Of a DNA stretch of 64,000 bases, positions 9,901-64,000 are shown piece after piece. The DNA is from Eledone cirrhosa. Lineage: Eukaryota. Location of the stretch: the NCBI GenBank assembly GCA_964016885.1, contig OZ024742.1:54312001-54376000 (forward strand), in the 5' to 3' direction. The translations under genes were made by a program, and so were the position numbers. Each line of letters opens with the position of its first letter. Position 1 is the stretch's first letter. Below the pieces are notes generated by a model. It did no database searches. It was not told the origin of the DNA and worked only from the letters and a program-made list of their open reading frames with translations.

Positions 9901-12900
9901 ACAGTGGAAGAGGGGCAGGAAAGCTATAACTAATTAACATTGCGTCTGTGCGTGCGTGCGTGCGTGTGTGTATGTCCGTGCAGCGTTCCAGTAAGAACTT
10001 CAAAAATAAGGTATCTATTTTTGAAGTTCTAGTTAAACTTTATTTAGTTACCTACATAGCTATGTGTGCTTACACACTTTTACAAATTATCCCCTGTGAT
10101 TGTTTCACATGTTTATTTTAGATATATTTATATGTCAATCAATTTCTAGTTGATATAAAATGCTCGGATCTATTCATTGGAATCTTGGAGCATATTTTAC
10201 GGGTGATATGGCGCATGTCTATCTGACATAACACCCTTAATTTAACTTAATTTTGTATATATATATTTATATATAATGTATGTATTTATATGTATGTATA
10301 TGTGTATATATATTTATATATATGAATATATGTGTATATATATATCTATATATATATATAGGGAAAAGTCTCCCTTTGGTCTCAAATGACCATGAGTTGT
10401 ACACCTGGTATGTTCCCGTTTGAGGCCAAGCCCCGGAGAACCCAGGACGCGATGACGTATGTGCGCGAGTACGGCAAACCAGACCTATTTATTACTTTTA
10501 CATGTAATCCTTCGTGGCAAGAAATTGCCCATGAACTCCTTCCAGGACAACAGCCCAGCGGTCGCCATGACCTCTCATCCAGAGTCTTAGAGCTAAAAGT
10601 ATACAAACTAATGGACCTTATCATAAAGGGCCAGGTATTTGGACGTGTGCAATGTTACATGTACACAATTGAATGGCAGAAGCGGGAACTCCCCCATGCT
10701 CACATTCTTATTTGGTTGTCGACAATAATCAGAGCAGACGACATCGACATGATTATATCCGCAGAGCTTCCAAACCCGCAAACTGACAAAACCCTATTTG
10801 ACAGGGTTACGTCGCACATGGTTCACGGTCCTTTTGGACGTGGCTTCAAATCTAACTCCCCGTGTTTGAACAACGGTATTTGCTCCAAAAAATACCCAAA
10901 AGCCTTCCTTTGCGAAATTCAAACTGCTGATGACGGATACCCATCATACAGACGAAGAAGCCCTGAGGACGGAGGATTAACAGCACTGGTTGGAAAACAT
11001 GAAATTGACAACCGATGGATTGTACCGTACTGCCCATTACTACTCAAGGCGTTCAACTCCCACATAAATGTTGAATGGTGCAACTCTATTAAATCAATCA
11101 AATATGTCTGCAAGTATATAAAGTAGGGCCCGGATGCCGCCATGTTCGGGCTTAAAGCAGAAAACAAACGGGATGAAGTTGCACAGTACCAATCAGCACA
11201 ATATATAAGTACCAGGGAGGCCTTTTGGCGAATTTACCGTTTCTCATGCACAGAAGATACCCTGTCGCCTAACACCTTGCTGTGCACCTGGAAAACGGCT
11301 AAAGAGTGTACTATACAAAACAAACAGGTTTTCAGAGGGCTCTGCAACCAAGGAACACAACTCTTACTGCATTCTTTCAACTATGTCAAGGCGACGCATT
11401 CGTTCGCACTTTGCTGTATCCCCAAGTCCCCTTTTTCTACAAATGGGAAAAATATTCATGAAAGCCAAGAATCAATGGTGAAAGCGTTGATTGTCATCCA
11501 TATTTTAACTTTGACAGCTGCCTGGCGCGAGTTTACACAGTGCCCCCCATCTACCAAGAATGTTACTACCTGCGTATGCTTCTCCATGACATAAGAGGAC
11601 CAACCAGTTTTCAACACCTAAGAACTGTTGATGGCCAAATTTGCGGCATGCACAGAGAGGCCTGCCTCAGGCGTGGACTACTGGAAATGGTGCTCTGTGG
11701 GATGCCACTTTGGCAGAAGTAGTTGTTTCACAAATGCCACACAGCCTTAGGAAGCTTTTTGCTGTCTTACTGTACATTTGTGAATTGCCCGATCCTTCCT
11801 TCTTGTGGATCAAGTACAGAGATGACCTCTCTGAGGACTTCAGACATCAAGCAAAATTACAACTTCCTGACATGGAAGTAGGCTTCACAGATGAAATCTA
11901 CAACAAAGCACTTATTGAAATTGAAAATATGGTTTCTGCAATGGGTGGGAATGCACTGCAGACATATTGCCTGCCCCAAACCAACAGAACAGGCTCCGAC
12001 GTCATTTCCGCAGAAATACTTCGGGAACTATCCTACGACACTGACAGCTTGGCTACATATGTCACTGAACATGAACCAATGCTGCTGCAGGAACAGGAAC
12101 GAGCATATAACACTATTGCTGACTGTGTCCACCGTCGTACGGGAGGAATCTTTTTCTTGGACGCCCCTGGAGGCACAGGGAAGACTTTTGTCATACGGCT
12201 TCTCCTTGCCAAGGTTCGACAACACAGACACATAGCACTTTCTGTTGCGTCTTCCGGTATTGCAGCAACCTTGCTTCCAGGGCCAGGACAGCACATTCAG
12301 CCTTCAAACTCCCCCTCAATATGACAGCAAATGACTCACCCTGCTGTAATATTACCAAAGACAGAACTGCTTAAAAGGTGTGAACTTATAGTTTGGGACG
12401 AATGTACCATGGCTCATAAAGGAGCTTTGGAGGCACTGGACCGGACTTTAAGAGACATAAGAGACTTCCAGGATCCCATGGGAGGCGTGACTGTCCTTTT
12501 ATCCGGAGATTTTAGACAAACCCTCCCTGTTATTCCCAAAGGAACAAGGGCTGATGCTATTCGAGCATGCTTAAAGTCATCTCCGCTTTGGCGTTATGTA
12601 ACAACATTATCTCTCTCTACGAACATGAGAGCTCGGATGCTTGGTGACCAAGTGTCATCAGATTTTGCTACCCACCTATTGACACTTTGGAACGGCAAAG
12701 TGCCACTTGATGAAGATGAAAAAATCTCCGTCGAACTGGTCTGCACTTTAGCCGACAGATGCAGTATTCCCTGAGTTGAGCACTAACTACCAAAATCCAA
12801 ACTGGCTGTGCGAAAGGGCAATACTGGCTCCGAAAAATGAGATTGTCGACAAAATCAACGGACAACTGCTTAAGTCTCTTCCTACAGCTTCGTGTACATA

Positions 12901-14615
12901 CAAGTCCATCGATACAGTCACAGAGACCATTAACTACCCAATTGAGTTTCTTAACTCATTGAACCCCTCCGGGTTACCATCTCATCGATTGGAACTTAAG
13001 CAAGGATGCCCAATTATGCTTTTGAGGAATTTACACCCACCAAAACTCTGCAACGGCACGCGCCTTACAGTAAATAAACTAACGCAAAACTTGATCGAGG
13101 CGACGATTCTCTCGGGGTGTGGGAAAGGGGGAAAATGTTTTTATCCCAAGGATTCCCCTTTGTACGTCAACATCAGAGATCTCTTTTTCATTTAGGAGGC
13201 TCCAGTTTCCAGTTCGCTGTAGTTTCTCTATGACGATAAATAAGTCTCAGGGCAAACATTGTCCGTCGCAGGAATAAACCTAGAAGAGCCATGCTTTTCG
13301 CACGGTCTGCTATACGTTGGATGTTCCAGAGTGGGAAGCAAAAGAAACCTTTATGCATTTGCTCCAAACGGTAAAACCACAAACTTCTGTACCAAGAAGT
13401 TCTGTAATCAACACTGTGACACAAACCGTCTTCTAACAATCAAATACCTCGCTGCTTTCAATAATTACCAAATTGTAAACATACTGCCTTTTTGAAATTC
13501 ATAACACCATACTTTTCGACTGTAAACCTTGTGACCACTTTGTGCCGTACGGTATTAAAATGCACGTTTCCGTCTGGTTGGTTGAGCCAGTTTTCCATGG
13601 ATTCGCCATCGCGTGCAGCAGATTCACATGTCTTTGCTGCCGCAGTTAACGCTGTGTTTCGGTTGATACAGCTCAGACAGCAGACGTTGACTCACAGTTC
13701 TTTGCTGCAGCAGTTGACGCTTTGTTTCTGTTGATGCATCTCGAGCTGCGGAAGTTGCCTCAGCGTTTCTATGCCGCCGTAATGAACCCTGTGGTTCGTT
13801 CTCTGCATCTCCTGCAATAGACGTTGCCTCAATATTTGCTTTCGTCGCAGTGAGGGTTAAGAATCGTTTTCTGCACCTTAAGCAGCAGTAGTTGCCTCAG
13901 CATTTATTTGCTATCGCATCGAACATTCTTTCGTTTTCAGCATCTCGTGCAATAGAAGTTGCTACAGCATTTTTCTTTTGGCGTAATAATCGCTATTCGT
14001 TATTCTCTGTTACTTTTGCAATCGAGGTTGGTGCAGAATTTGTGTTGAGGAATTTTGAGCGTCCTTCATGTTTGGTCTATGTCACTGCAATCAGTCTATG
14101 GAAAGCAACGTCACAGTTCCTATTGGCAGCCATAACTATACAGAATGGTAAGCATTTCAAACGACATAAATCATTAGAATGCCTACATATACGCAATGCA
14201 TAACGAAAAATTTACATGTATCTACTGTAGCAAACGTATGGCACCCCCCGCCCCTCATTTGTACCTTTTACTCAATGTCGTCATACATTATCTCCGTCAT
14301 CCCGCAACGACTTCAGTCCCTGAATTGGCAAACATCCCACATTATTGTCATAAATTCCATGTGACTCACTTTTGGGCTGCTGACTTCCTTGTGGCATAGT
14401 TCGCGTTTGGAGCTTCACCGCCTCAACGTCACACTTTTACACTCATTCACCTTTCATATGCCATAACATTTTACCGTTTTTACATCGAACAACACATACT
14501 TCTTATGGTTAAAAATAAATGTATTTTTGGGGTTCGTGCTACGTTGTTTTCTCTTTAAAAAAATTATTTACTAATGGTAAACTTACACCCGGGCAACGCC
14601 GGGTATGGCTGCTTG
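9582..14615 (+). mobile_element. Decayed Helitron (left boundary tentative)
   Basis: 5' TCTATATCTATAAAAATG at 9582 and RepHel remnants. The 3' hairpin ACCCGG-GCAACG-CCGGGT (14587-14604) is followed by CTTG|T, a mutated CTAG. Confidence 0.75.
10383..13407 (+). pseudogene. Helitron RepHel transposase (HUH-Y2 Rep + PIF1-like helicase), 5' truncated and frameshifted
   Basis: GKPDLFITFTCNP, EWQKRELPHAHIL, KSIKYVCKY, LDAPGGTGKTF, LIVWDECTM, GDFRQTLPV, TINKSQGQT and YVGCSRV motifs in successive frames. Confidence 0.95.
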
Positions 14616-21733: not shown

Positions 21734-23869
21734 TCACCTTGATCACCTTGACCGACCTGTCTGGGCACAGCACGCCGTCGATTCCTCTCTGGATCGTGCT
21801 TTCCTCATCCATGTAGCCCAAATCATATTCCTAAAATCGTAACTCCACCTTCGTGGAGGCCTTCCGAGTGGTCGTTTCCGCTCGCGCGGGTACCACTCGG
21901 CAACTAGCGGCTCCACCGATTATTGGTGAACCGGGCGACGTGTCCAGCCCATCTGAACTTGCTGCGCATATATTCCGTGATGACGTCCCTCACGCCGGAC
22001 TTCTGTTTGAAGACTTCGCTCCTGATGTGCTCTCTCAACGAGAATCCTAGCATTGATCTCTCCATGGCTCTTGAGCCGTTACCAGCCTCTGCTCCTCTCT
22101 CTTCGTTGTAGCCCAACTTTCACTGCCATTTAACATTGCAAGTAAAACTGCTATTGAAGAGGTTGGCGCGGGTCGCCTTGTCCAACCTCCCCTTGAGCAC
22201 ATCCCTTATGCCGTTGAACGCCTTCCATCAGACCCTTATACTCCACGAGATCTCCCTCTCAATGTCTCGGCGCATGTTCACTTCTTGTCCTCGGTAGACG
22301 TATTCCTCCACTTCCTCTATTTCATCACCGCCAACCACCATTCGACGTGTTGGTACGTTGTCGGACCGCATGAACTTCGTTTTCATGCGGTTCATCTTGA
22401 GGCCTACTGCTGAGCTTTTGATGTCGAGCTCCGTCAGCATGGTCTGAAGCTGATCCGTGGTTTCAGCGATGAGTACGATGTAATCAGCGAAACGGAGGTG
22501 GGTAATTATCTCGCCGTTGATGCTGACGCCGCCTTGCCAGTCAATGCCTCTGATGATCACTTCGAGACACGCGGTGAAAAGTTTTGGAGAGATCGTATCT
22601 CCTTGCTTCACTCCCTTCTCGACCGGCACTCGTAGGGGTGATGACAGCAGAGCTATGTCGATGGTGCATCCGGAATTCGCCATCTTAAGCAGTTAAACGT
22701 ATTGCGCCTCGACTCCTTGCTTATGCAGCGATAAGCGACGAGCGACGCATACTTCAGGACGTCTCTCTCATAACGCCATTCAACACTGGTAGTGATCATC
22801 GTCTGGTGAGGGCGAAGGTCGTCATCGACCGGTGAGGGAGAAAAAGGCGCTGCATTTGGCGTCGAAGGGAGAACGCGTCCGGGTCTTCAACGAGGCGAAG
22901 CTGCAGGAACCCATCATGCAGGAAAACTGACGTCAAGGAGACGGCATAGATACTGACTACGACTCACTGATAAGGAAACTGAAGGAGTGCTTGAGGAAGG
23001 CTAAGGGTGTGTGCCCGAGGGAGTGGAACGGAAGAGTCTCGGAGGAAACTATGAAATTGCTTGAGAAGCGGAAGAATATGAAGAGAACACCTGAAAATCA
23101 CCTCGAATATTCCCTTCTCAGCAGAATGATACGTCAACAACTGAAGAGAGACTTAAGAAGCTCCTGAAGGCCGCAGAGGAAAAGAAGAGCCCCAATAAAT
23201 GCGAGATGGACATGGCAATGTACAGATCGGAGGTGACGACCCTGAAGAATACAGCTGGAGTACCGGTCAGCGACAAGAGTGAGGTGGAAAAGATTTGCGA
23301 AGACTTCTACACCAAGCTCTTCAAGTCTGCCGGGAATGTGCAGCCGTCGCCGTCACTCCAACAGGAAGAAAATGTGCCCTCCATCCTTGTCAGTGAGGTG
23401 AAAGAGCCGTCGGCTTGATGAAAAGCGGAAAGGCGCCAGGGAAAGACGGCATAAGATCGGAGGTGTTGAAGTCAGCCGGAGAGCAGCTCTGGAAAATCTT
23501 CGCCGAACGGTTCACACACTATCTGGACGAGGGAAGAATACCCTCGCAGTGGAAAGAGAAGAATACCATCCTACTATACAAGAAGGGCGATAGAGAAGAT
23601 CTGAAGAACTACCGACCCACATGCCTGCTGTCTCACGTGTACAAGCTGTTCACGAAGATAATCCTGAACAGGTTATCACGTCATCTGGACGAACAACAAC
23701 CGAGAGAGCAAGCCGGCTACGGAAGAACTACAGCACAATGGACCACATATTTACTCTGACACAACTTCTTGAGCGAGTGAAAGAGTAGAAGATGCCTCTT
23801 TGCGTCGCGTTCGTAAACTACGAGAAGGCCTTCGACAGCGTCGAATTCAACGCTGTGCTAAACTTGCTG
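21734..23869 (-). mobile_element. RTE-clade LINE with inverted 5' segment (3' part on - at 21734-22731; upstream part on + at 22732-23869)
   Basis: KGVKQGDTISPKLF, HLRFADYIVL and KFRWAGHVAR on -, with (TCAAGGTGA) tail repeats. GKAPGKDGI, KNYRPTCLL and YEKAFDSVE on +. Confidence 0.92.
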
Positions 23870-28679: not shown

Positions 28680-31600
28680 GAAAAAGAGATGAAATCGAAA
28701 ATGCAACTGGAGTCTTATTTTAAAAAAAAATGATATATATTTATTTGGTTCCTTTACCGGTTTCGCAGTTCTTCTGCCTTTCAAAAGTAGATTTGAGATG
28801 GAGGATCTGTGGTTTTTCTCACATCTGGTTGGTCTTTGGATGTTACTTGTTTTATATGGAAAAAAGTGGCTCGAAACGCCAGGTTTTTAGAGAAGTAATT
28901 TAATTGTTTGATGAATAAGTATAATAAATTTCGCGTCAGTTCGCGTAACAAAGTTCTTCAAACAGGGGGGGGGGGGCTCAGGTTGTTTTTTCATATATAA
29001 GTGAAGTTTGGTTGGTTGATGCAGTCACGTGCAGCTTTCGCGCCATTTTGTTTCAATTTCTTTTTATTTAAAAAAAGTGGCTCACGAAGGGTTTTTTTTT
29101 TTATAAATGTAATTTGATTGGTTATAAATTAAATTATGACTGTCACGTGAACAAGTTCATTAAATTTCGCGCCCGTATTTGGGAATTTATTTTGTAGCCT
29201 TTTCGAGAATTTTATGACAAACAAAAGATAATGGTCAAGAGAAATGGGATGAGGAGAATTGTTCTCGTCCAGTGAGTATGGCTGGTTCGCTGGGGTGTCA
29301 GAATTCAAACTTTCTATTGAAATAAAGAAAGTAGAGATATGTATGTTTATTTGTATGTGTGTGTGTGGGGGGGGGGGAGTATGTTAAGATGGAGAGAATA
29401 TATATATTTTGTGTGTGTATGTGTGTAGGAAAGTTATTCTATTAGTAGAAATGGGGGAGGGAGTTGTGTGTGTGGGCGGGAAGGTATAATGTGGGTGTGG
29501 GAGTATGGTTAGCATGTTAAGATGAAGAGAATATATATATTTTGTGTGTGTGTGTAGGAAAATGATTCCGTTAGTAGAAATGGGGGAGGGAGTTATGTGT
29601 GTGTGTGGGTGTGTGTGGGAGGTGTTAGAGTATTAACGTATGTTAAGGTATATTTAGTTCTGGTTTTTATTTTCTAAAGTAGAAGGTGTTATATGTGTGT
29701 GTGTATGTATGTGTCTGTTTGGATGGTTAGCATATTATGGTGTTGACATAATGTATCTTAAACTATATTTAATGCTGGTCTATATTTTTGAATAAACACA
29801 TTTTCGTTATTTATTCGTATTTGTTCTGTTGTATTGTCAGTGCAAATGTAAAACGGGAAGACTTGGAATTTGGGTGTCTTATTACTTGCGCATATGTCTA
29901 GATATGCACTTAGTGGTGTCTGTCTCGTGGTTGGATCTCGTAATTGTTGGCGATGCTGTTTCTGAGTGTGAGTTTAGTTTGTCCTATATAATCTTCATTG
30001 CATCCTTTACATTTAATGGCGTAAAGCGGATTTTTTGATGAGCAAGTGAAGTGATTTTTTACAGCAAAATTCTGTCCTGATTGAAATGTATACGTGTTGC
30101 CTTCAATGAGGTGAGTGCAGGTTCCACAATTAGAGCGACCAAATATTTTGACAGTTGGTTGTCGGTTTGTGGTAGATAATTTGGCATTGGTAAGTAATGT
30201 TTTTAGTGATTTCGGTTGTCTTTTGCTTTTGATTATTTTGTGTGTTTCAAGGGTTTTTTCATTCTTGGATCTTGTTTCAATAGTGGGATGTTCTTGTGAA
30301 TAGTGTTGTAAGCTTCCGCATTTCTCGGGTTGTGTGTTGAGATATATGATAGAATATTGGACGTACCTTGAATTTGTTTCTGTTTTCGTAATTCATCAAG
30401 GCCTATTGCTTTTCGCCCTTTCTATTCCACTATTTATTAGTAATGGTGAGTACTGTCTTTCGAGTAGAATTTCTTTTAATTCTTGAAGTCTTTTATTTCG
30501 CGTTTCATAATTGGAGACAAATGTGCAAATTCTTCTTGCTAGGTTAAAAGGAATGTTCGTCTTCGTGTGCTTTGGATGGTAAATAGCAGGTATTGTCTGG
30601 AATCTGTTGGTTTGTAGTGTATGTCAGTTTCAATATTTGTGTCTTTTTTTAAGATTAAGATGTCCAGAAATGGGAGTTGATCTTGGCTGTATTCCATGGT
30701 GATTTGGATGTGGTTATTCATGCCGTTTATTAAATTTTTGAAATCATTCAGTTGGTCGAGTGTGTGGGACCAAAGAATGAGACAATCATCCAAGTAGCGT
30801 TTCCAATTCTCTGATAAATATTTGTGGAAGTTCAATCCGTATTTTGATTTGGACTGTTCATATATCTGGACTTCTAAGTATGCCATGACTAAGTTGGCAT
30901 AAGTTGGAGCGGCTTTTGTACCCATCGCAGTCCCCGATATTTGCTGGTAAGTACTGTCATCGAAATCAAAAAAGTTGTTCTGTAAGATAAATTTAATCCC
31001 TCAGTGATGAAGCTTTTTTCTATTCTATCAGGTATCTCATTGGGATATTTCTCTAGCCAGAATCCTATTGCTTCTAGTCCGTATTGTTGTGGGATCGTTG
31101 TGTAGAGATTCACTATATAGAAAGACACAATAATAGTGTCGTTGTTGACATGTTTGGGGAGGTGGTTTAAGAGGTCCAGATCGTCTCTTACAAGGCTTGG
31201 TATGTGTTTGAGAATTGGTTTTAGTAGTATGTCTATAAAATTGCTTAGTCTGTGTGTTTCACATTGTAGGCCCGCTACAATTGGTCTTAATTTAAGGTCT
31301 GTAGGGTATTGTGTGTTCACGCAGTTTGAGGTGGATTGTTTACAGGCATCGTTAATTATTTTATACTTGTGGATCTTCGGAAGTCCATAAAGGTTGCTGG
31401 TATTGTGTTCAAAATGTGTTAAATAATCGCGTTCCTTTTTAGTTAAGTCTTCCTGGTATCGGCAAATCAGTGTGTTTAATCTGGTCATCGTTTTTGATTG
31501 CTGGTAGATTTTTTACTCTTTCATAGTAATTAGTATTTTGTAAGAGAGAGAACATAGAATTTTTATATTTTTCAGCATCCATAATGACGACAGTACTTCC

Positions 31601-50029: not shown

Positions 50030-50648
50030 TAAGAAATGCATAATCTGTAAACTAAGCTCCCACATTAACTGTAAAACTAGAAATGTAGTATATAGCAGTA
50101 TAGTATTGAAGGACAATGTAAAGATAAGAATATAGTGTACATAGTTGAGACAGCTCGTAGTATAGGAGAACGGTTAAATGAACACTGGCGAGAGCTTCAA
50201 GATAAAAAAGAATCACCAATACACCACCAACATGCTAAAATAGAACATAAGGGCAAATTAGAGAACATAGAAATAAAAATAGAATCTACACCCAGAAAAG
50301 ATGCAATGTTTAAACAAATCACATAGGCAATAAACATAAATGAACTCCAACCCAAATTAAATAGAAAACATGAATGGAATAGCAACATGACAACTTACAC
50401 AACACACCCAAAAACGAGATGGCGTAGGACGGAACAAAGGAGAGGGACAAAACAAAGAAAAGAATCCCCAGTCACTGAAGAGGTCACAGAATGTGTGACG
50501 AAGAACTTTGACAATATATGAACAACCGTCCGGTTGTGGAACCAACCAACCAACCAACCGGAAATTTATAAATTTAATTTATAATAAATTGGAGTGAAAG
50601 CAACTGGTGCGTGTGTTTCTTATTGGCAACATGACCCTCCCAAAGTAT

Positions 50649-50650
<2 letters not shown>
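50030..50650 (+). pseudogene. Penelope-like GIY-YIG 3' fragment followed by family D pLTR
   Basis: NCKTRNVVY...YIVETARSIGERLNEH...HAKIEH...QPKLNRKHEW. Confidence 0.85.
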
Positions 50651-50700
<50 letters not shown>

Positions 50701-50703
<3 letters not shown>

Positions 50704-52890
50704 TATAGACATAGAATATTCGAAAATATTCTGTATGTTTATAATAAACATTTTGAAGACCTAATCGCTATAGAATAGAATACGTCACGTATTACAATTA
50801 GATTCTCGATAAAAGCAAGGGAAGTAATCTACGCGTTTCATTCTCGTTAGAAATCATCAGGACTACATATCCAGTGCTTTTATCGAGAATGACACAGCTA
50901 GAGACTTATAGAATACTTAGCTGTGTACAGGAACTGGTTTGAAAGAGCGGTTGCCGGTCCGGCAGAAATTAGAAATTGGAATAAATGCTCTGAAATAGCG
51001 ATATATATGTGAATATAGACATAGAATATTCGAAAATATTCTGTATGTTTATAATAAACATTTTGAAGACCTAATCGCTATAGAATAGAATACGTCACGT
51101 ATTACAATTAGATTCTCGATAAAAGCAAGGGAAGTAATCTACGCGTTTCATTCTCGTTAGAAATCATCAGGACTACATATCCAGTGCTTTTATCGAGAAT
51201 GACACAGCTAGAGACTTATAGAATACTTAGCTGTGTACAGGAACTGGTTTGAAAGAGCGGTTGCCGGTCCGGCAGAAATTAGAAATTGGAATAAATGCTC
51301 TGAAATAGCGATATATATGTGAATATAGACATAGAATATTCGAAAATATTCTGTATGTTTATAATAAACATTTTGAAGACCTAATCGCTATAGAATAGAA
51401 TACGTCACGTATTACAATTAGATTCTCGATAAAAGCAAGGGAAGTAATCTACGCGTTTCATTCTCGTTAGAAATCATCAGGACTACATATCCAGTGCTTT
51501 TATCGAGAATGACACAGCTAGAGACTTATAGAATACTTAGCTGTGTACAGGAACTGGTTTGAAAGAGCGGTTGCCGGTCCGGCAGAAATTAGAAATTGGA
51601 ATAAATGCTCTGAAATAGCGATATATATGTGAATATAGACATAGAATATTCGAAAATATTCTGTATGTTTATAATAAACATTTTGAAGACCTAATCGCTA
51701 TAGAATAGAATACGTCACGTATTACAATTAGATTCTCGATAAAAGCAAGGGAAGTAATCTACGCGTTTCATTCTCGTTAGAAATCATCAGGACTACATAT
51801 CCAGTGCTTTTATCGAGAATGACACAGCTAGAGACTTATAGAATACTTAGCTGTGTACAGGAACTGGTTTGAAAGAGCGGTTGCCGGTCCGGCAGAAATT
51901 AGAAATTGGAATAAATGCTCTGAAATAGCGATATATATGTGAATATAGACATAGAATATTCGAAAATATTCTGTATGTTTATAATAAACATTTTGAAGAC
52001 CTAATCGCTATAGAATAGAATACGTCACGTATTACAATTAGATTCTCGATAAAAGCAAGGGAAGTAATCTACGCGTTTCATTCTCGTTAGAAATCATCAG
52101 GACTACATATCCAGTGCTTTTATCGAGAATGACACAGCTAGAGACTTATAGAATACTTAGCTGTGTACAGGAACTGGTTTGAAAGAGCGGTTGCCGGTCC
52201 GGCAGAAATTAGAAATTGGAATAAATGCTCTGAAATAGCGATATATATGTGAATATAGACATAGAATATTCGAAAATATTCTGTATGTTTATAATAAACA
52301 TTTTGAAGACCTAATCGCTATAGAATAGAATACGTCACGTATTACAATTAGATTCTCGATAAAAGCAAGGGAAGTAATCTACGCGTTTCATTCTCGTTAG
52401 AAATCATCAGGACTACATATCCAGTGCTTTTATCGAGAATGACACAGCTAGAGACTTATAGAATACTTAGCTGTGTACAGGAACTGGTTTGAAAGAGCGG
52501 TTGCCGGTCCGGCAGAAATTAGAAATTGGAATAAATGCTCTGAAATAGCGATATATATGTGAATATAGACATAGAATATTCGAAAATATTCTGTATGTTT
52601 ATAATAAACATTTTGAAGACCTAATCGCTATAGAATAGAATACGTCACGTATTACAATTAGATTCTCGATAAAAGCAAGGGAAGTAATCTACGCGTTTCA
52701 TTCTCGTTAGAAATCATCAGGACTACATATCCAGTGCTTTTATCGAGAATGACACAGCTAGAGACTTATAGAATACTTAGCTGTGTACAGGAACTGGTTT
52801 GAAAGAGCGGTTGCCGGTCCGGCAGAAATTAGAAATTGGAATAAATGCTCTGAAATAGCGATATATATGTGAATATAGACATAGAATATT
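50701..52890 (-). repeat. 310-bp hammerhead-bearing tandem array, left arm (7 units + 20 bp)
   Basis: GAATATAGAC recurs at 50701, 51011, 51321, 51631, 51941, 52251, 52561 and 52871. The ribozyme motif is on the - strand. Confidence 0.97.
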
Positions 52891-55800
52891 ATTCCAATTT
52901 CTAATTTCTGCCGGACCGGCAACCGCTCTTTCAAACCAGTTCCTGTACACAGCTAAGTATTCTATAAGTCTCTAGCTGTGTCATTCTCGATAAAAGCACT
53001 GGATATGTAGTCCTGATGATTTTTAACGAGAATGAAACGCGTAGATTACTTCCCTTGCTTTTATCGAGAATCTAATTGTAATACGTGACGTATTCTATTC
53101 TATAGCGATTAGGTCTTCAAAATGTTTATTATAAACATACAGAATATTTTCGAATATTCTATGTCTATATTCACATATATATCGCTATTTCAGAGCATTT
53201 ATTCCAATTTCTAATTTCTGCCGGACCGGCAACCGCTCTTTCAAACCAGTTCCTGTACACAGCTAAGTATTCTATAAGTCTCTAGCTGTGTCATTCTCGA
53301 TAAAAGCACTGGATATGTAGTCCTGATGATTTCTAACGAGAATGAAACGCGTAGATTACTTCCCTTGCTTTTATCGAGAATCTAATTGTAATACGTGACG
53401 TATTCTATTCTATAGCGATTAGGTCTTCAAAATGTTTATTATAAACATACAGAATATTTTCGAATATTCTATGTCTATATTCACATATATATCGCTATTT
53501 CAGAGCATTTATTCCAATTTCTAATTTCTGCCGGACCGGCAACCGCTCTTTCAAACCAGTTCCTGTACACAGCTAAGTATTCTATAAGTCTCTAGCTGTG
53601 TCATTCTCGATAAAAGCACTGGATATGTAGTCCTGATGATTTCTAACGAGAATGAAACGCGTAGATTACTTCCCTTGCTTTTATCGAGAATCTAATTGTA
53701 ATACGTGACGTATTCTATTCTATAGCGATTAGGTCTTCAAAATGTTTATTATAAACATACAGAATATTTTCGAATATTCTATGTCTATATTCACATATAT
53801 ATCGCTATTTCAGAGCATTTATTCCAATTTCTAATTTCTGCCGGACCGGCAACCGCTCTTTCAAACCAGTTCCTGTACACAGCTAAGTATTCTATAAGTC
53901 TCTAGCTGTGTCATTCTCGATAAAAGCACTGGATATGTAGTCCTGATGATTTCTAACGAGAATGAAACGCGTAGATTACTTCCCTTGCTTTTATCGAGAA
54001 TCTAATTGTAATACGTGACGTATTCTATTCTATAGCGATTAGGTCTTCAAAATGTTTATTATAAACATACAGAATATTTTCGAATATTCTATGTCTATAT
54101 TCACATATATATCGCTATTTCAGAGCATTTATTCCAATTTCTAATTTCTGCCGGACCGGCAACCGCTCTTTCAAACCAGTTCCTGTACACAGCTAAGTAT
54201 TCTATAAGTCTCTAGCTGTGTCATTCTCGATAAAAGCACTGGATATGTAGTCCTGATGATTTCTAACGAGAATGAAACGCGTAGATTACTTCCCTTGCTT
54301 TTATCGAGAATCTAATTGTAATACGTGACGTATTCTATTCTATAGCGATTAGGTCTTCAAAATGTTTATTATAAACATACAGAATATTTTCGAATATTCT
54401 ATGTCTATATTCACATATATATCGCTATTTCAGAGCATTTATTCCAATTTCTAATTTCTGCCGGACCGGCAACCGCTCTTTCAAACCAGTTCCTGTACAC
54501 AGCTAAGTATTCTATAAGTCTCTAGCTGTGTCATTCTCGATAAAAGCACTGGATATGTAGTCCTGATGATTTCTAACGAGAATGAAACGCGTAGATTACT
54601 TCCCTTGCTTTTATCGAGAATCTAATTGTAATACGTGACGTATTCTATTCTATAGCGATTAGGTCTTCAAAATGTTTATTATAAACATACAGAATATTTT
54701 CGAATATTCTATGTCTATATTCACATATATATCGCTATTTCAGAGCATTTATTCCAATTTCTAATTTCTGCCGGACCGGCAACCGCTCTTTCAAACCAGT
54801 TCCTGTACACAGCTAAGTATTCTATAAGTCTCTAGCTGTGTCATTCTCGATAAAAGCACTGGATATGTAGTCCTGATGATTTCTAACGAGAATGAAACGC
54901 GTAGATTACTTCCCTTGCTTTTATCGAGAATCTAATTGTAATACGTGACGTATTCTATTCTATAGCGATTAGGTCTTCAAAATGTTTATTATAAACATAC
55001 AGAATATTTTCGAATATTCTATGTCTATATTCACATATATATCGCTATTTCAGAGCATTTATTCCAATTTCTAATTTCTGCCGGACCGGCAACCGCTCTT
55101 TCAAACCAGTTCCTGTACACAGCTAAGTATTCTATAAGTCTCTAGCTGTGTCATTCTCGATAAAAGCACTGGATATGTAGTCCTGATGATTTCTAACGAG
55201 AATGAAACGCGTAGATTACTTCCCTTGCTTTTATCGAGAATCTAATTGTAATACGTGACGTATTCTATTCTATAGCGATTAGGTCTTCAAAATGTTTATT
55301 ATAAACATACAGAATATTTTCGAATATTCTATGTCTATATTCACATATATATCGCTATTTCAGAGCATTTATTCCAATTTCTAATTTCTGCCGGACCGGC
55401 AACCGCTCTTTCAAACCAGTTCCTGTACACAGCTAAGTATTCTATAAGTCTCTAGCTGTGTCATTCTCGATAAAAGCACTGGATATGTAGTCCTGATGAT
55501 TTCTAACGAGAATGAAACGCGTAGATTACTTCCCTTGCTTTTATCGAGAATCTAATTGTAATACGTGACGTATTCTATTCTATAGCGATTAGGTCTTCAA
55601 AATGTTTATTATAAACATACAGAATATTTTCGAATATTCTATGTCTATATTCACATATATATCGCTATTTCAGAGCATTTATTCCAATTTCTAATTTCTG
55701 CCGGACCGGCAACCGCTCTTTCAAACCAGTTCCTGTACACAGCTAAGTATTCTATAAGTCTCTAGCTGTGTCATTCTCGATAAAAGCACTGGATATGTAG

Positions 55801-56622
55801 TCCTGATGATTTCTAACGAGAATGAAACGCGTAGATTACTTCCCTTGCTTTTATCGAGAATCTAATTGTAATACGTGACGTATTCTATTCTATAGCGATT
55901 AGGTCTTCAAAATGTTTATTATAAACATACAGAATATTTTCGAATATTCTATGTCTATATTCACATATATATCGCTATTTCAGAGCATTTATTCCAATTT
56001 CTAATTTCTGCCGGACCGGCAACCGCTCTTTCAAACCAGTTCCTGTACACAGCTAAGTATTCTATAAGTCTCTAGCTGTGTCATTCTCGATAAAAGCACT
56101 GGATATGTAGTCCTGATGATTTCTAACGAGAATGAAACGCGTAGATTACTTCCCTTGCTTTTATCGAGAATCTAATTGTAATACGTGACGTATTCTATTC
56201 TATAGCGATTAGGTCTTCAAAATGTTTATTATAAACATACAGAATATTTTCGAATATTCTATGTCTATATTCACATATATATCGCTATTTCAGAGCATTT
56301 ATTCCAATTTCTAATTTCTGCCGGACCGGCAACCGCTCTTTCAAACCAGTTCCTGTACACAGCTAAGTATTCTATAAGTCTCTAGCTGTGTCATTCTCGA
56401 TAAAAGCACTGGATATGTAGTCCTGATGATTTCTAACGAGAATGAAACGCGTAGATTACTTCCCTTGCTTTTATCGAGAATCTAATTGTAATACGTGACG
56501 TATTCTATTCTATAGCGATTAGGTCTTCAAAATGTTTATTATAAACATACAGAATATTTTCGAATATTCTATGTCTATATTCACATATATATCGCTATTT
56601 CAGAGCATTTATTCCAATTTCT
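52891..56622 (+). repeat. 310-bp hammerhead-bearing tandem array, right arm (12 units + 12 bp), reverse complement of left arm
   Basis: ATTCCAATTT recurs every 310 bp from 52891 to 56611. Confidence 0.97.
53317..53359 (+). ncRNA. Type I hammerhead ribozyme motif (representative; one per 310-bp unit, 19 in total)
   Basis: GTAGTC-CTGATGA-tTTCTaacgAGAAt-GAAAC-GC-GTA-GATTAC. Stem I is 6 bp, stem II is 4 bp, stem III is the palindrome ACGCGT, and cleavage is predicted after GUA. Confidence 0.88.
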
Positions 56623-56687
56623 TATATATATATATATATATAAAAATAAAGATCCGAAGGCAAGGTATAAATTTCCAATCATTTTAA

Positions 56688-61528: not shown

Positions 61529-64000
61529 AAAAAGATGAAATAGAAAATGCAACTGGAGTCTTATTTAAAAAAATATATATATATTTATTTGGTTCCTTTA
61601 CCGGTTTCGCAGTTCTTCTGCTTTTCAAAAGTAGAGTTGAGATGGAGGATCTGTGGTTTTTCTCACATCTGGTTGGTCTCTGAATGTTACTTGTTTTCTA
61701 TTGAAAAAGTGGCTCGAAATGCCAGGTTTTTCGAGAAGTAATTTGATTGTTTGGTCAATAATTATAATAAATTTCGCGCCAGTTCGCGTTACAAAGTTCT
61801 TCAAACAAGGGGTGGGGGGTCACAGGTTGTTTTTTCATATATGAGTGTTTGAATTTCTTTTTACTTAAAAAAGGGGCTCACGAATGCTTTTTTTAAATAA
61901 ACGTAATTTGATTGGTTATAAATGAAATTATGGCTGTCACGTGTACAAGTTTTCATTACATTTTCGCGCCCTTATTTGGAAATCCATTCTGTAGCCTTTT
62001 TAGAGGATTTTATGATAAGTAAAAGATAATGGTCAAGAGAAATGGGATAGGAGAATTGTTCTGGTTTTGTGAATATGGTTAGTTCGCTGGGGGAGTCAGA
62101 ATTCAGATTTTCTATTGAATAAAGAAAGTAGAGATATGTATGTTTATTTGTTTGCTTGTGTGTGTGTGCGTGTGTGTGGGTGTGTGTGTGTGTTGTGTGT
62201 GTTTGAATTTCTTTTTACTTAAAAAAGGGGCTCACGAAGGCTTTTTTTTAATAAACGTAATTTGATTGGTTATAAATCAAATTATGGCTGTCAGGTGAAC
62301 AAGTTTTCATTAAATTTTCGCGCCTATATTTGGGAATGTGTGTATGTGTGTATTGGAAGATGATTCTATTAGTAGAAATGGGTGAGGGAGTTGTGTGTGA
62401 GTGTGTATATGGGTGTTATGTGTGTGTGTGTGGGTGTATGTTAAGATGGAGAGAATATATATTTTGTGTGTGTGTATATATGTGTGTAGGAAAGTGATTC
62501 TATTAGTAGAAATGGAGGAGTGGAGTTGTGTGTGGGGTGGGGGTTGTTATGTGTGTGTATGGGTGTTATGTGTGTAGGAGTATTGTTAGCATATTAAGAT
62601 GAAGAGAATATATATATATTGTGTGTGTGTGTGTGTGTAGGAACATGATTACTTTAGTAGGAATATTTTGAATGAACATATTTTCCTTACTTATTCGTAT
62701 TTGTTCTGTTGTATGGTCAGTGCAAACGTATGTTAAGGTTTATTTAGTTCGGGTTTTTATTTTCTAAAGTAGAAGGTATTATGTGTGCTGTATGTGTCTG
62801 TTTGGATGGTTAGCATGTTATGGTGTTGACATAATGTATATTAAACCATATTTAATGCTGTTCCATATTTTTAAATAAACATATTTTCCTTATTTATTCG
62901 TATTTGTTCTGTTGTATTGTTAGCGCAAAGGTAAAATGGGAAGACCTGGAATTTGGGTGTCTTATTACTTGCGCATATGTCTAGATGTGCGCTTAGTAGT
63001 ATCTGTCTCGTGGTTGGATCTCGTAAGTTTTGGCGATGAACTGACATTCTGTTTCTGAGTGTGAGTTTAGTTTATCCTTCATTGCATCCTTTACATTTAA
63101 TGGCATAAACTAGATTTTTTGATGAGCAAGTGAAGAGATTGTTTACAGTAAAATTTTGTCCTGATTTAAATGTATACGTGTTGCCTTCAATGAGGTGAGT
63201 GCAGGTTCCACAATTAGAGCGACCACATTTTTTGACACTTGGTTGTGGATTTGTGGTAGGTAATTTGGAATTGATGAGTAATGTTTTCAGTGATTTCGGT
63301 TGTCTTTTGCTTTTGATTATTTTGTGTGACCTTAAATTAAGACCAATTGTAGCGGGCCCACAATGTGAAACACACAGACTGAGCAACTTTATAGACATAC
63401 TACTAAAGCCAATTCTCAAACACATACCAAGCCTTGTAAGAGACGATCTAAACCTCTTAAACCACCTCTCCCAAAATGTCAACAACGACACTATTATTAT
63501 CTCTTTTGATGGAGTGAATCTCTACACAACGATCCCACACCAATACGGACTAGAAGCAATAGGTTTCTGGCTACAGAAATATCCCAATGAGATACCTGAC
63601 AGAATAGAAAAAAGCTTCATCTCCGAGGGATTAAAATCCATCTTACAGAACAACTTTTTTGATTTCGATGGCAGTACTTACAAGCAAATATCGGGGACTG
63701 CGATGGGTACAAAAGCCGCTCCAACTTATGCCAACTTAGTCATGGCATACTTAGAAGTCCAGATATATGAACAGTCCAAATCAAAATACGGATTGAACTT
63801 CCACAAATATTTATCAGAGAATTGGAAACGCTGATTGTCTCATTCTTTGGTCCCACACACTCGACCAACTGAAGGATTTCAAAAACTTAATAAACGACAT
63901 CAATAACCACATCCAATTCACAATGGAATACAGCCAAGATCAACTCCCATTTCTGGACATCTTAAGCTTAAAAAAGACACAAATATTGAAACTGACATAC
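61525..64000 (-). mobile_element. Penelope-like element, same family as 28680-34302, with internal inversion at 63328
   Basis: The pLTR and GIY-YIG part is on - (KCGRSNCGTC..NLVYAIKCKGC). The RT part from DLKLRPIVAGP is on + and runs off the window. Confidence 0.92.

Follow-up and report, generated by a model that had tools for sequence, protein, structure and literature searches.

A 310-bp unit repeated in tandem in the genome of Eledone cirrhosa raises the question of whether its self-complementarity reflects selection on the fold of an RNA and, if so, how that RNA is copied into DNA. The first plus-strand unit lies at positions 52891-53200 of the window, i.e., the 64,000-nucleotide stretch that was analyzed (assembly GCA_964016885.1, contig OZ024742.1, forward strand 54,312,001-54,376,000), and unit positions given below are window positions minus 52890. 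The initial annotation had proposed an extensively self-complementary monomer, a hammerhead capping a long, interrupted stem I, and selection on RNA structure. We consider it likely that the element is a young non-LTR retrozyme whose fold is kept by selection and whose circle is copied by a Penelope-like enzyme.

Predicted fold, hammerhead and covariation

The 310-bp unit has a G+C content of 107/310, and no ORF of at least 120 aa was found over the whole array, nor any ORF with RT and GIY-YIG. It fits the bounds of animal non-LTR retrozymes (i.e., tandem, 150-450 bp, GC below 50% and non-coding). All seven repeat strings listed in the initial annotation occur exactly where they had been placed. 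The 16-bp perfect inverted repeat (5' arm, 52983-52998; 3' arm, 53056-53071; plus strand) is the longest in the 310-nt unit, compared with a longest of 11 bp in 200 dinucleotide shuffles. The extensive self-complementarity claimed for the monomer was borne out: the linear fold reached -77 kcal/mol (z = -5.18), which none of 100 shuffles equalled, and the circular fold, which the annotation had named as a check against shuffled controls, gave -67.8 (z = -4.5; 0/300 shuffles equal). The predicted circle is 60% paired, mostly owing to one domain. Without the 89-nt long-stem domain the unit had a z of -2.35, with 4 of 300 shuffles as good; because the remainder gives this weak signal, the excess folding lies mostly in the long-stem domain. 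The reverse complement of the unit folded equally well (circular z = -4.85). Since both strands fold alike, energy alone tells neither the strand nor RNA from DNA.

The smaller hairpins had been located correctly, but GCCGG-A-CCGGC cannot form as drawn, since a 1-nt loop cannot close. Fold prediction replaces it with a 5-bp hairpin with a GAC loop (52909-52921, plus strand), which the sister family described below retains with one U.G pair. The other predicted elements, all on the plus strand, are the AATACG hairpin of 6 bp with a triloop (53080-53094), a branch (53102-53188) closed by ATAGCGAT (53102-53109) and ATCGCTAT (53181-53188), and the AGAATATT hairpin at the tip of that branch (53141-53160). 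The branch and its tip hairpin were read from the exact repeats, the predicted fold and the comparison with the sister family; the two arms of the 16-bp helix are supported by exact repeat and covariation.

A type I hammerhead is predicted at 53007-53049 of the plus strand, on the basis of direct reading, covariation and energies. It comprises a 6-bp stem I (53007-53012/53044-53049), CUGAUGA (53013-53019), stem II with U.U at its base and a hexaloop (53020-53033), GAAA (53034-53037) and the palindrome ACGCGU (53037-53042), with the cut predicted after GUA at 53043. Stem III would be one A-U pair closed by a palindromic CGCG loop. Outward from the core, stem I is interrupted by a UAU/U internal loop and, after 3 bp, by a 2x2 loop, beyond which comes the 16-bp helix. 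The proposal of a type I hammerhead whose stem I is both long and interrupted is supported by the sequence and by covariation with the sister family. The hammerhead call is a direct reading of the sequence that Rfam models do not score: searches at the gathering threshold and at E<=10 returned no hammerhead family match to the unit. The exact 38-nt core has 4,198 matches in the genome.

In stem I, it is the small UAU/U loop, separated from the core by 6 bp, that is of the contact type; the 16-bp helix lies two internal loops outward. Its UAU side (53004-53006), facing U at 53050, is the predicted partner of loop II, judging from the fold and from likeness to the motif in PMC2632901. The contact motif, made up of a U and a pyrimidine in loop I and the final A of loop II, is kept between the two families, and no inherited variant hits its nucleotides; a loop I-loop II contact is predicted for this hammerhead. 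The active hammerhead fold lies 6.7 kcal/mol above the predicted minimum, and double-hammerhead pairing of two domains gives -68.7 kcal/mol versus 2 x -24.6 kcal/mol for singles. According to PMC7229834, axolotl HHR_Amex1 has a stem III of one pair with a palindromic tetraloop, HHR_Amex2 has U.U at the base of stem II, and both motifs cut far better as dimers. Given that the one-pair stem III and the U.U match these dimer-favouring motifs, and given the double-hammerhead energy, cleavage would need a tandem transcript, which would leave the monomer circle fairly stable; in the sister family stem III has 3 bp, versus one pair here. We judge it fairly likely that tandem transcripts would be cleaved, in the dimeric (double-hammerhead) mode. 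Activity should not be assumed, because only 1 of 9 predicted Xenopus dimers was reported to cut (bioRxiv 10.64898/2026.07.22.740005). Among the sampled insertions, a subfamily (L041 and L046) has one extra base in the stem I 3' strand together with U130A, a combination that would convert a G.U to G-C with a bulge and strengthen stem II.

Covariation in homologs was the other check named by the initial annotation. A 17-nt anchor common to both families gave 3,481 matches, some of them young-family variants, and led to an older sister family (family B) with a 314-nt unit, likewise in tandem and with two ends as in the young family. The two families are identical in 167 of 256 columns (~65%). 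In six helices, 42 pairs were compared, leaving aside U.U, one gapped pair, two out-of-register helices (15 pairs) and the full-length alignment, which slips out of register 3' of the hammerhead. Twenty-six pairs were unchanged, 4 singly changed but still paired and 3 broken, and all 9 doubly changed pairs still pair (9/9; P ~2e-4 for at least 9). These 9 come from one comparison of two lineages and are spread over the long helix (4, all within 7 bp and perhaps fewer events), stem I (2), stem II (2) and the AGAATATT hairpin (1). In the control analysis, there were 12 double-changed pairs, compared with 6.3 in shuffles and 2-5 in slid controls. Two of the annotated helices did not covary in register: only 1 of 6 pairs of the AATACG hairpin, and 0 of the 5 pairs with letters in the ACACAGCTA helix, were kept in the sister family, which folds hairpins of its own near both places.

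Insertions at the locus and in the genome

The noted monomer is the first of 12.05 plus-strand copies that stand back to back with 7.07 minus-strand copies. Repeat mapping placed the whole insertion, two diverging tandem arms within (TA)n, at 50699-56622, between a left (TA)n target tract at 50653-50698 and a right one at 56623-56642. The left arm (50699-52890, minus strand; 7.07 identical units) ends outward at unit 283, the short end, at the internal CATATATAT. The right arm (52889-56622, plus strand; 12.05 units) ends outward at unit 12 of the next unit, the tail end, 39 nt past the short-end position. They meet at an inversion junction with a 2-nt overlap (52889-52890), where unit positions 263 and 309 adjoin, well away from the predicted cut. 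The sole substitution in the 5.9-kb array is a C to T at 53023, in stem II of the first plus copy. Between the two fixed insertion ends lies a tail segment (53173-53215, plus strand; unit 281-292 to 6-15 of the next unit), which contains ATCGCTATTTCAGAGCA, almost unchanged in the sister family. The ends of this segment are putative start sites of reverse transcription.

The window holds other repeats as well. The 3' end of another repeat with a degenerate hammerhead-like motif (CTGAAGA...GAAG) occupies 50400-50653 and stops at the very (TA)n tract into which the array inserted; its relatives are found at L070, L093, L097 and L098, the last being a short inverted insertion with a tail of ~60 nt. 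Broken Helitron-like frames with Helitron_like_N, PIF1 and Pif1_2B matches lie at 10362-13195, and RVT_1 reverse transcriptase fragments at 22231-22692 (minus strand), 30542-31000 (minus) and 63202-63834 (plus), the latter two below the curated cut-off.

Counting by sequence-pattern matching, 26-nt stem pieces gave 16,214-17,296 matches in the 3.0-Gb genome (~17,000 copies). The two kinds of insertion end gave 598 and 786 plus-strand matches, the minus-strand end counts being inflated through repeated matches. Based on the plus-strand counts for both kinds of end, the family has roughly 1,200-1,600 loci. The sample analyzed further came from 91 stretches, taken from the window and contig 1, and contained 95 insertions, picked by core, short end, tail end or both ends, so that ascertainment was mixed.

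Among these 95 insertions, 78 were simple diverging pairs, 15 were single arms (one beside a gap and two being halves of one interrupted locus), 2 were complex and none was simply converging. Consecutive short-end matches, the subset with the least bias, were two-armed in 30 of 32 cases. All 58 complete two-armed insertions among the first 74 had one short end (unit 276-293) and one tail end (unit 300-16). Junction ends are spread over the unit with no phase avoided and no preference for the cut site: of 130 ends, 2 fell 5 nt or less from it, compared with 4.6 expected. In animal non-LTR retrozymes a target-site duplication, when there is one, exceeds 4 bp; here both flanks of the insertions are (TA)n, so that any such duplication blends into the tract. 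Every feature testable from the genome places the element among the animal non-LTR retrozymes, as a young member. For its two-armed, Penelope-type layout, no description of inverted retrozyme arrays was found in the openly accessible literature, and the word 'inverted' is absent from the accessible text of PMC7229834.

We also noticed further hammerhead-bearing families. A third family (L098:5630-5830, L101:7500-7710 and L096:683-708), which shares the stem II sequence, forms short diverging insertions in (TA)n with a larger difference between the ends. Another family, in the flanks of L044 and L059, carries a minimal hammerhead whose stem II has a basal U.U but a different sequence, with the loop UAA(C/U)AA and a palindromic stem III.

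The young unit is also present in 20 sequencing runs from 17 studies under 18 organism labels. Copies from six contig sets of those runs differed by 0-2 bases, at contig depths of 3-365, and may stem from close relatives, horizontal transfer or contamination. These contig sets were too similar to serve as a source of covariation, and the 310-back joints in them were set aside as evidence of RNA circles, since any tandem repeat yields such joints.

Proposed enzyme partner and template

Hallmarks of Penelope-like elements are TA targets, partial tandem copies, inversion of the 5' copy and, at one end, a tail of 30-40 bp (bioRxiv 10.1101/2021.04.23.441226). An inverted 5'-truncated copy was found in 78 simple and 2 complex insertions of the 95, and a 30-40-bp tail on one end only in 58 of the 58 complete two-armed ones. 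As described in PMC11167929, a Penelope-like protein, once purified, was able to cleave and extend each of the two strands, initiating at two internal sites between which the tail lies. In the E. cirrhosa genome, frames with RT and GIY-YIG reach 938 aa with both Pfam matches. Of 10,597 GIY-YIG candidates, 50 loci were compared with the unit, and no autonomous element among these 50 shared the unit's sequence or had a pLTR resembling it. Two autonomous Penelope-like loci, L096 and L097, are diverging pairs in (TA)n with tails of ~65 and ~50 nt, respectively; in L097 a minimal hammerhead of the same build, with U.U and a palindromic stem III, precedes the short end by 122 nt, compared with 130 nt in the unit. 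That a Penelope-like element supplies the enzyme is, in our judgment, very likely.

Penelope-like ORFs of 938 and 1,096 aa were also noted at L091:3809-6622 (minus strand) and L093:2275-5562 (plus strand). Both have a cysteine cluster ahead of GIY-YIG and are Neptune-like by the description in bioRxiv 10.1101/2021.04.23.441226. The L091 family appears to have been recently active, because its copies are 96-98% identical.

The proposed mechanism runs as follows. Tandem transcripts would cut themselves at the type I hammerhead, probably as a double hammerhead, and the cut monomer would be closed into a circle, which the Penelope-like RT/GIY-YIG protein would copy round and round from both ends of the cut (TA)n. 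The long stem likely keeps both halves of stem I together, as it would the ends of the monomer once that has been cut; the ATAGCGAT branch, between both start sites, may be the protein's handle.

The copies themselves bear on the template. We took a variant shared by 80% or more of an insertion's copies as inherited, having come with the template; a variant confined to a single copy was taken to have arisen during or after insertion. Where an inherited variant was covered by both arms, it was present in both in 121 of 121 cases. The 95 insertions fall into 31 haplotypes, and each haplotype is fixed across arms of up to 27 units. This pattern calls for passage through a single unit and subsequent multiplication, which rolling-circle copying would provide; such copying of retrozyme circles was proposed in PMC7229834. 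Some variants are patchy: 14 variants in 10 insertions mark some copies only, and multimer templates or later inter-copy conversion must explain them. At L058 and L207, a variant occurs only in the outermost copy of both arms, a pattern that cannot come from a monomer circle because only the outermost copies are marked. At L241, A119G is present in 7 of 7 copies of the short-end arm and, in the tail-end arm, in the 2 innermost of 6 copies; this mosaic may result from template switching, from a change that arose while copying was under way or from conversion at a later time.

Such cases are what one would expect if the same element and enzyme used a long, uncut tandem transcript as the template, with the fold serving protein binding over cleavage. 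Both the single-copy variants common to the two arms (L058, L207 and L249) and the L241 mosaic fit this explanation, as does the finding that hammerhead cleavage is dispensable for a Penelope-like protein in vitro, where unprocessed RNA is used and hammerhead mutants insert normally (PMC11167929). Most of the 31 haplotypes are, however, fixed in all copies of both arms, each having passed through one unit, the catalytic core is untouched by inherited variants, and conversion within arrays would also yield the patchy cases. We thus regard an uncut template as unlikely, and a monomer circle as the usual template as fairly likely.

Selection, strand asymmetry and known systems

If the fold matters, inherited variants should spare it. 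Indels were left out, and damage was defined as a broken pair or a core hit on the full predicted fold. Six of 28 inherited variants were damaging versus 12.0 expected (P = 0.004), and 6 of 20 versus 11.5 expected without A-to-G changes (P = 0.008), while single-copy mutations were damaging in 44 of 87 cases versus 43.2 expected. Within unit 93-181 (the hammerhead and long stem), damaging changes made up 0 of 12 inherited variants versus 18 of 21 single-copy ones (P = 1.3e-6). The inherited variants there are wobbles, loop II changes, changes at the free core position 7 and U130A, which makes A-U out of U.U, and none hits the catalytic core. Outside this region, 6 of 16 inherited variants break predicted pairs; because these are all six of the damaging ones, selection is clearest on the hammerhead/long-stem domain. 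An earlier version of the test on hand-picked helices (0/22 damaging) was discarded, since it omitted helices that some variants break; the full fold gives 4/22. The claim that selection acted on RNA structure is supported by the covariation, by the sparing of stems by inherited variants and by the strand asymmetry described next, and we hold with high confidence that the fold of the unit is under selection.

Because the inverted repeat is perfect, an A-to-G change in one arm mirrors, at the DNA level, a T-to-C change in the other. Genome-wide, the 5' arm of the long stem had A-to-G in 1,082 copies versus T-to-C at the partner bases in 59, which are counts of copies and not of independent events. 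In the 95-insertion sample, with both arms taken together, the corresponding numbers were 74 and 3 copies. The C-to-T changes, which equally give wobbles, were found in 26 copies at 3 sites, i.e., at the background rate per site; hence it is A-to-G in particular, on the hammerhead strand, that is in excess. This strand asymmetry ties the process to RNA of the hammerhead strand.

The asymmetry bears directly on an explanation at the level of DNA, in which quasi-palindrome correction and cruciforms act in a satellite growing by unequal crossing-over or DNA circles, with no selection on RNA. Such an effect would suit a perfect 16-bp repeat and strands that fold alike, local growth of satellites has been modelled (bioRxiv 10.64898/2026.07.22.740005), and the irregular copy patterns in some long arms (L047, L048 and L201) point to some later turnover of DNA. 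It would treat A-to-G and its mirror T-to-C alike, however, which the counts above largely refute; moreover, compensation reaches the short stems of the hammerhead, and the ends are fixed at two sites in more than 1,000 dispersed loci. We regard it as very improbable. An origin of the inverted arrays in misassembly or in fold-back of long reads, as near-identical copies flanking an inversion might suggest, can be dismissed almost entirely, given that each locus has its own junction phase and haplotype while the outer ends are always the same two, and that the older sister family and autonomous elements share the layout with diverged arms.

Having set these explanations against selection on the RNA fold, we return to the source of the A-to-G excess. 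A119G occurs in 8 insertions of 6 haplotypes and A173G in 6 insertions of 5 haplotypes, and A119 sits in a UAG triplet, a favoured editing triplet (PMC2532740). The genome-wide frequency of A-to-G, 6.3%, exceeds the 11/786 of the sample, so that few subfamilies or large arrays may dominate it. The bias hints at A-to-I editing fixed by reverse transcription, while an error bias of the reverse transcriptase could mimic editing. A bolder and tentative proposal, to which we give less than even weight, is that the copies are a fossil record of a viroid-like circle, in which host A-to-I editing of duplexes was written to DNA by rolling-circle reverse transcription at the two ends of a Penelope-type cut and G.U intermediates (A102G and A173G) started the compensatory changes that separate the sister families. 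No report of a retrozyme-ADAR link or of edited retro-copies was found in the openly accessible literature. If the A-to-G bias is editing, it would be a route for RNA editing to become heritable sequence.

In the literature accessible to us, movement of animal retrozymes and the circle as template are proposed rather than shown. This genome offers a young element and intact-looking partner ORFs side by side, with more than 1,000 fresh insertions that carry a Penelope footprint, each preserving the sequence of its source RNA. Selection and mutation on a ribozyme-bearing RNA thus become measurable from DNA alone, and the stems that matter can be named.

In L1 twin priming, the 5' part is inverted and the arms diverge from a junction with short overlaps, as they do here. 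The insertions described here differ in having their two outer ends at fixed places, ~35 nt from each other along the unit, and in lacking poly(A). Because of these fixed ends and the lack of poly(A), two Penelope-type start sites fit better than chance internal priming.

The Schistosoma Sm-alpha hammerhead (PMC2632901) likewise has a stem I internal loop with a 3' U and a 5' pyrimidine, and a hexaloop ending in A. Its loop II is CAAAUA, compared with UAACGA/UAACAA in the unit and CAA(A/C)CA or CAACA in the sister family. The unit differs from Sm-alpha in its smaller 3x1 internal loop, its much weaker stems II and III and its added 16-bp helix.

With EN+ Penelope-like elements (bioRxiv 10.1101/2021.04.23.441226; PMC11167929), the unit shares partial tandems, an inverted 5'-truncated copy, a 30-40-bp tail, TA-rich targets and a hammerhead near the 3' end. 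Unlike those elements as described, it is without an ORF, has many whole units per arm, and has a canonical-looking extended hammerhead, not a minimal one.

The animal non-LTR retrozymes of coral, mussel and axolotl (PMC7229834; bioRxiv 10.64898/2026.07.22.740005) are likewise tandem units of low GC with one type I hammerhead each, a compact predicted fold and coexistence with Penelope-like elements. Stem III of the unit resembles that of axolotl HHR_Amex1, and the U.U at the base of stem II resembles that of HHR_Amex2 (PMC7229834). For animal retrozymes, RNA and cleavage have been shown (PMC7229834), whereas the Eledone unit is described here from genomic copies. Unlike the animal retrozymes in these accounts, the Eledone unit forms two diverging arms in (TA)n with fixed short and tail ends, and, in contrast to the accessible text of the retrozyme papers, selection on the fold is here measured from genomic copies.
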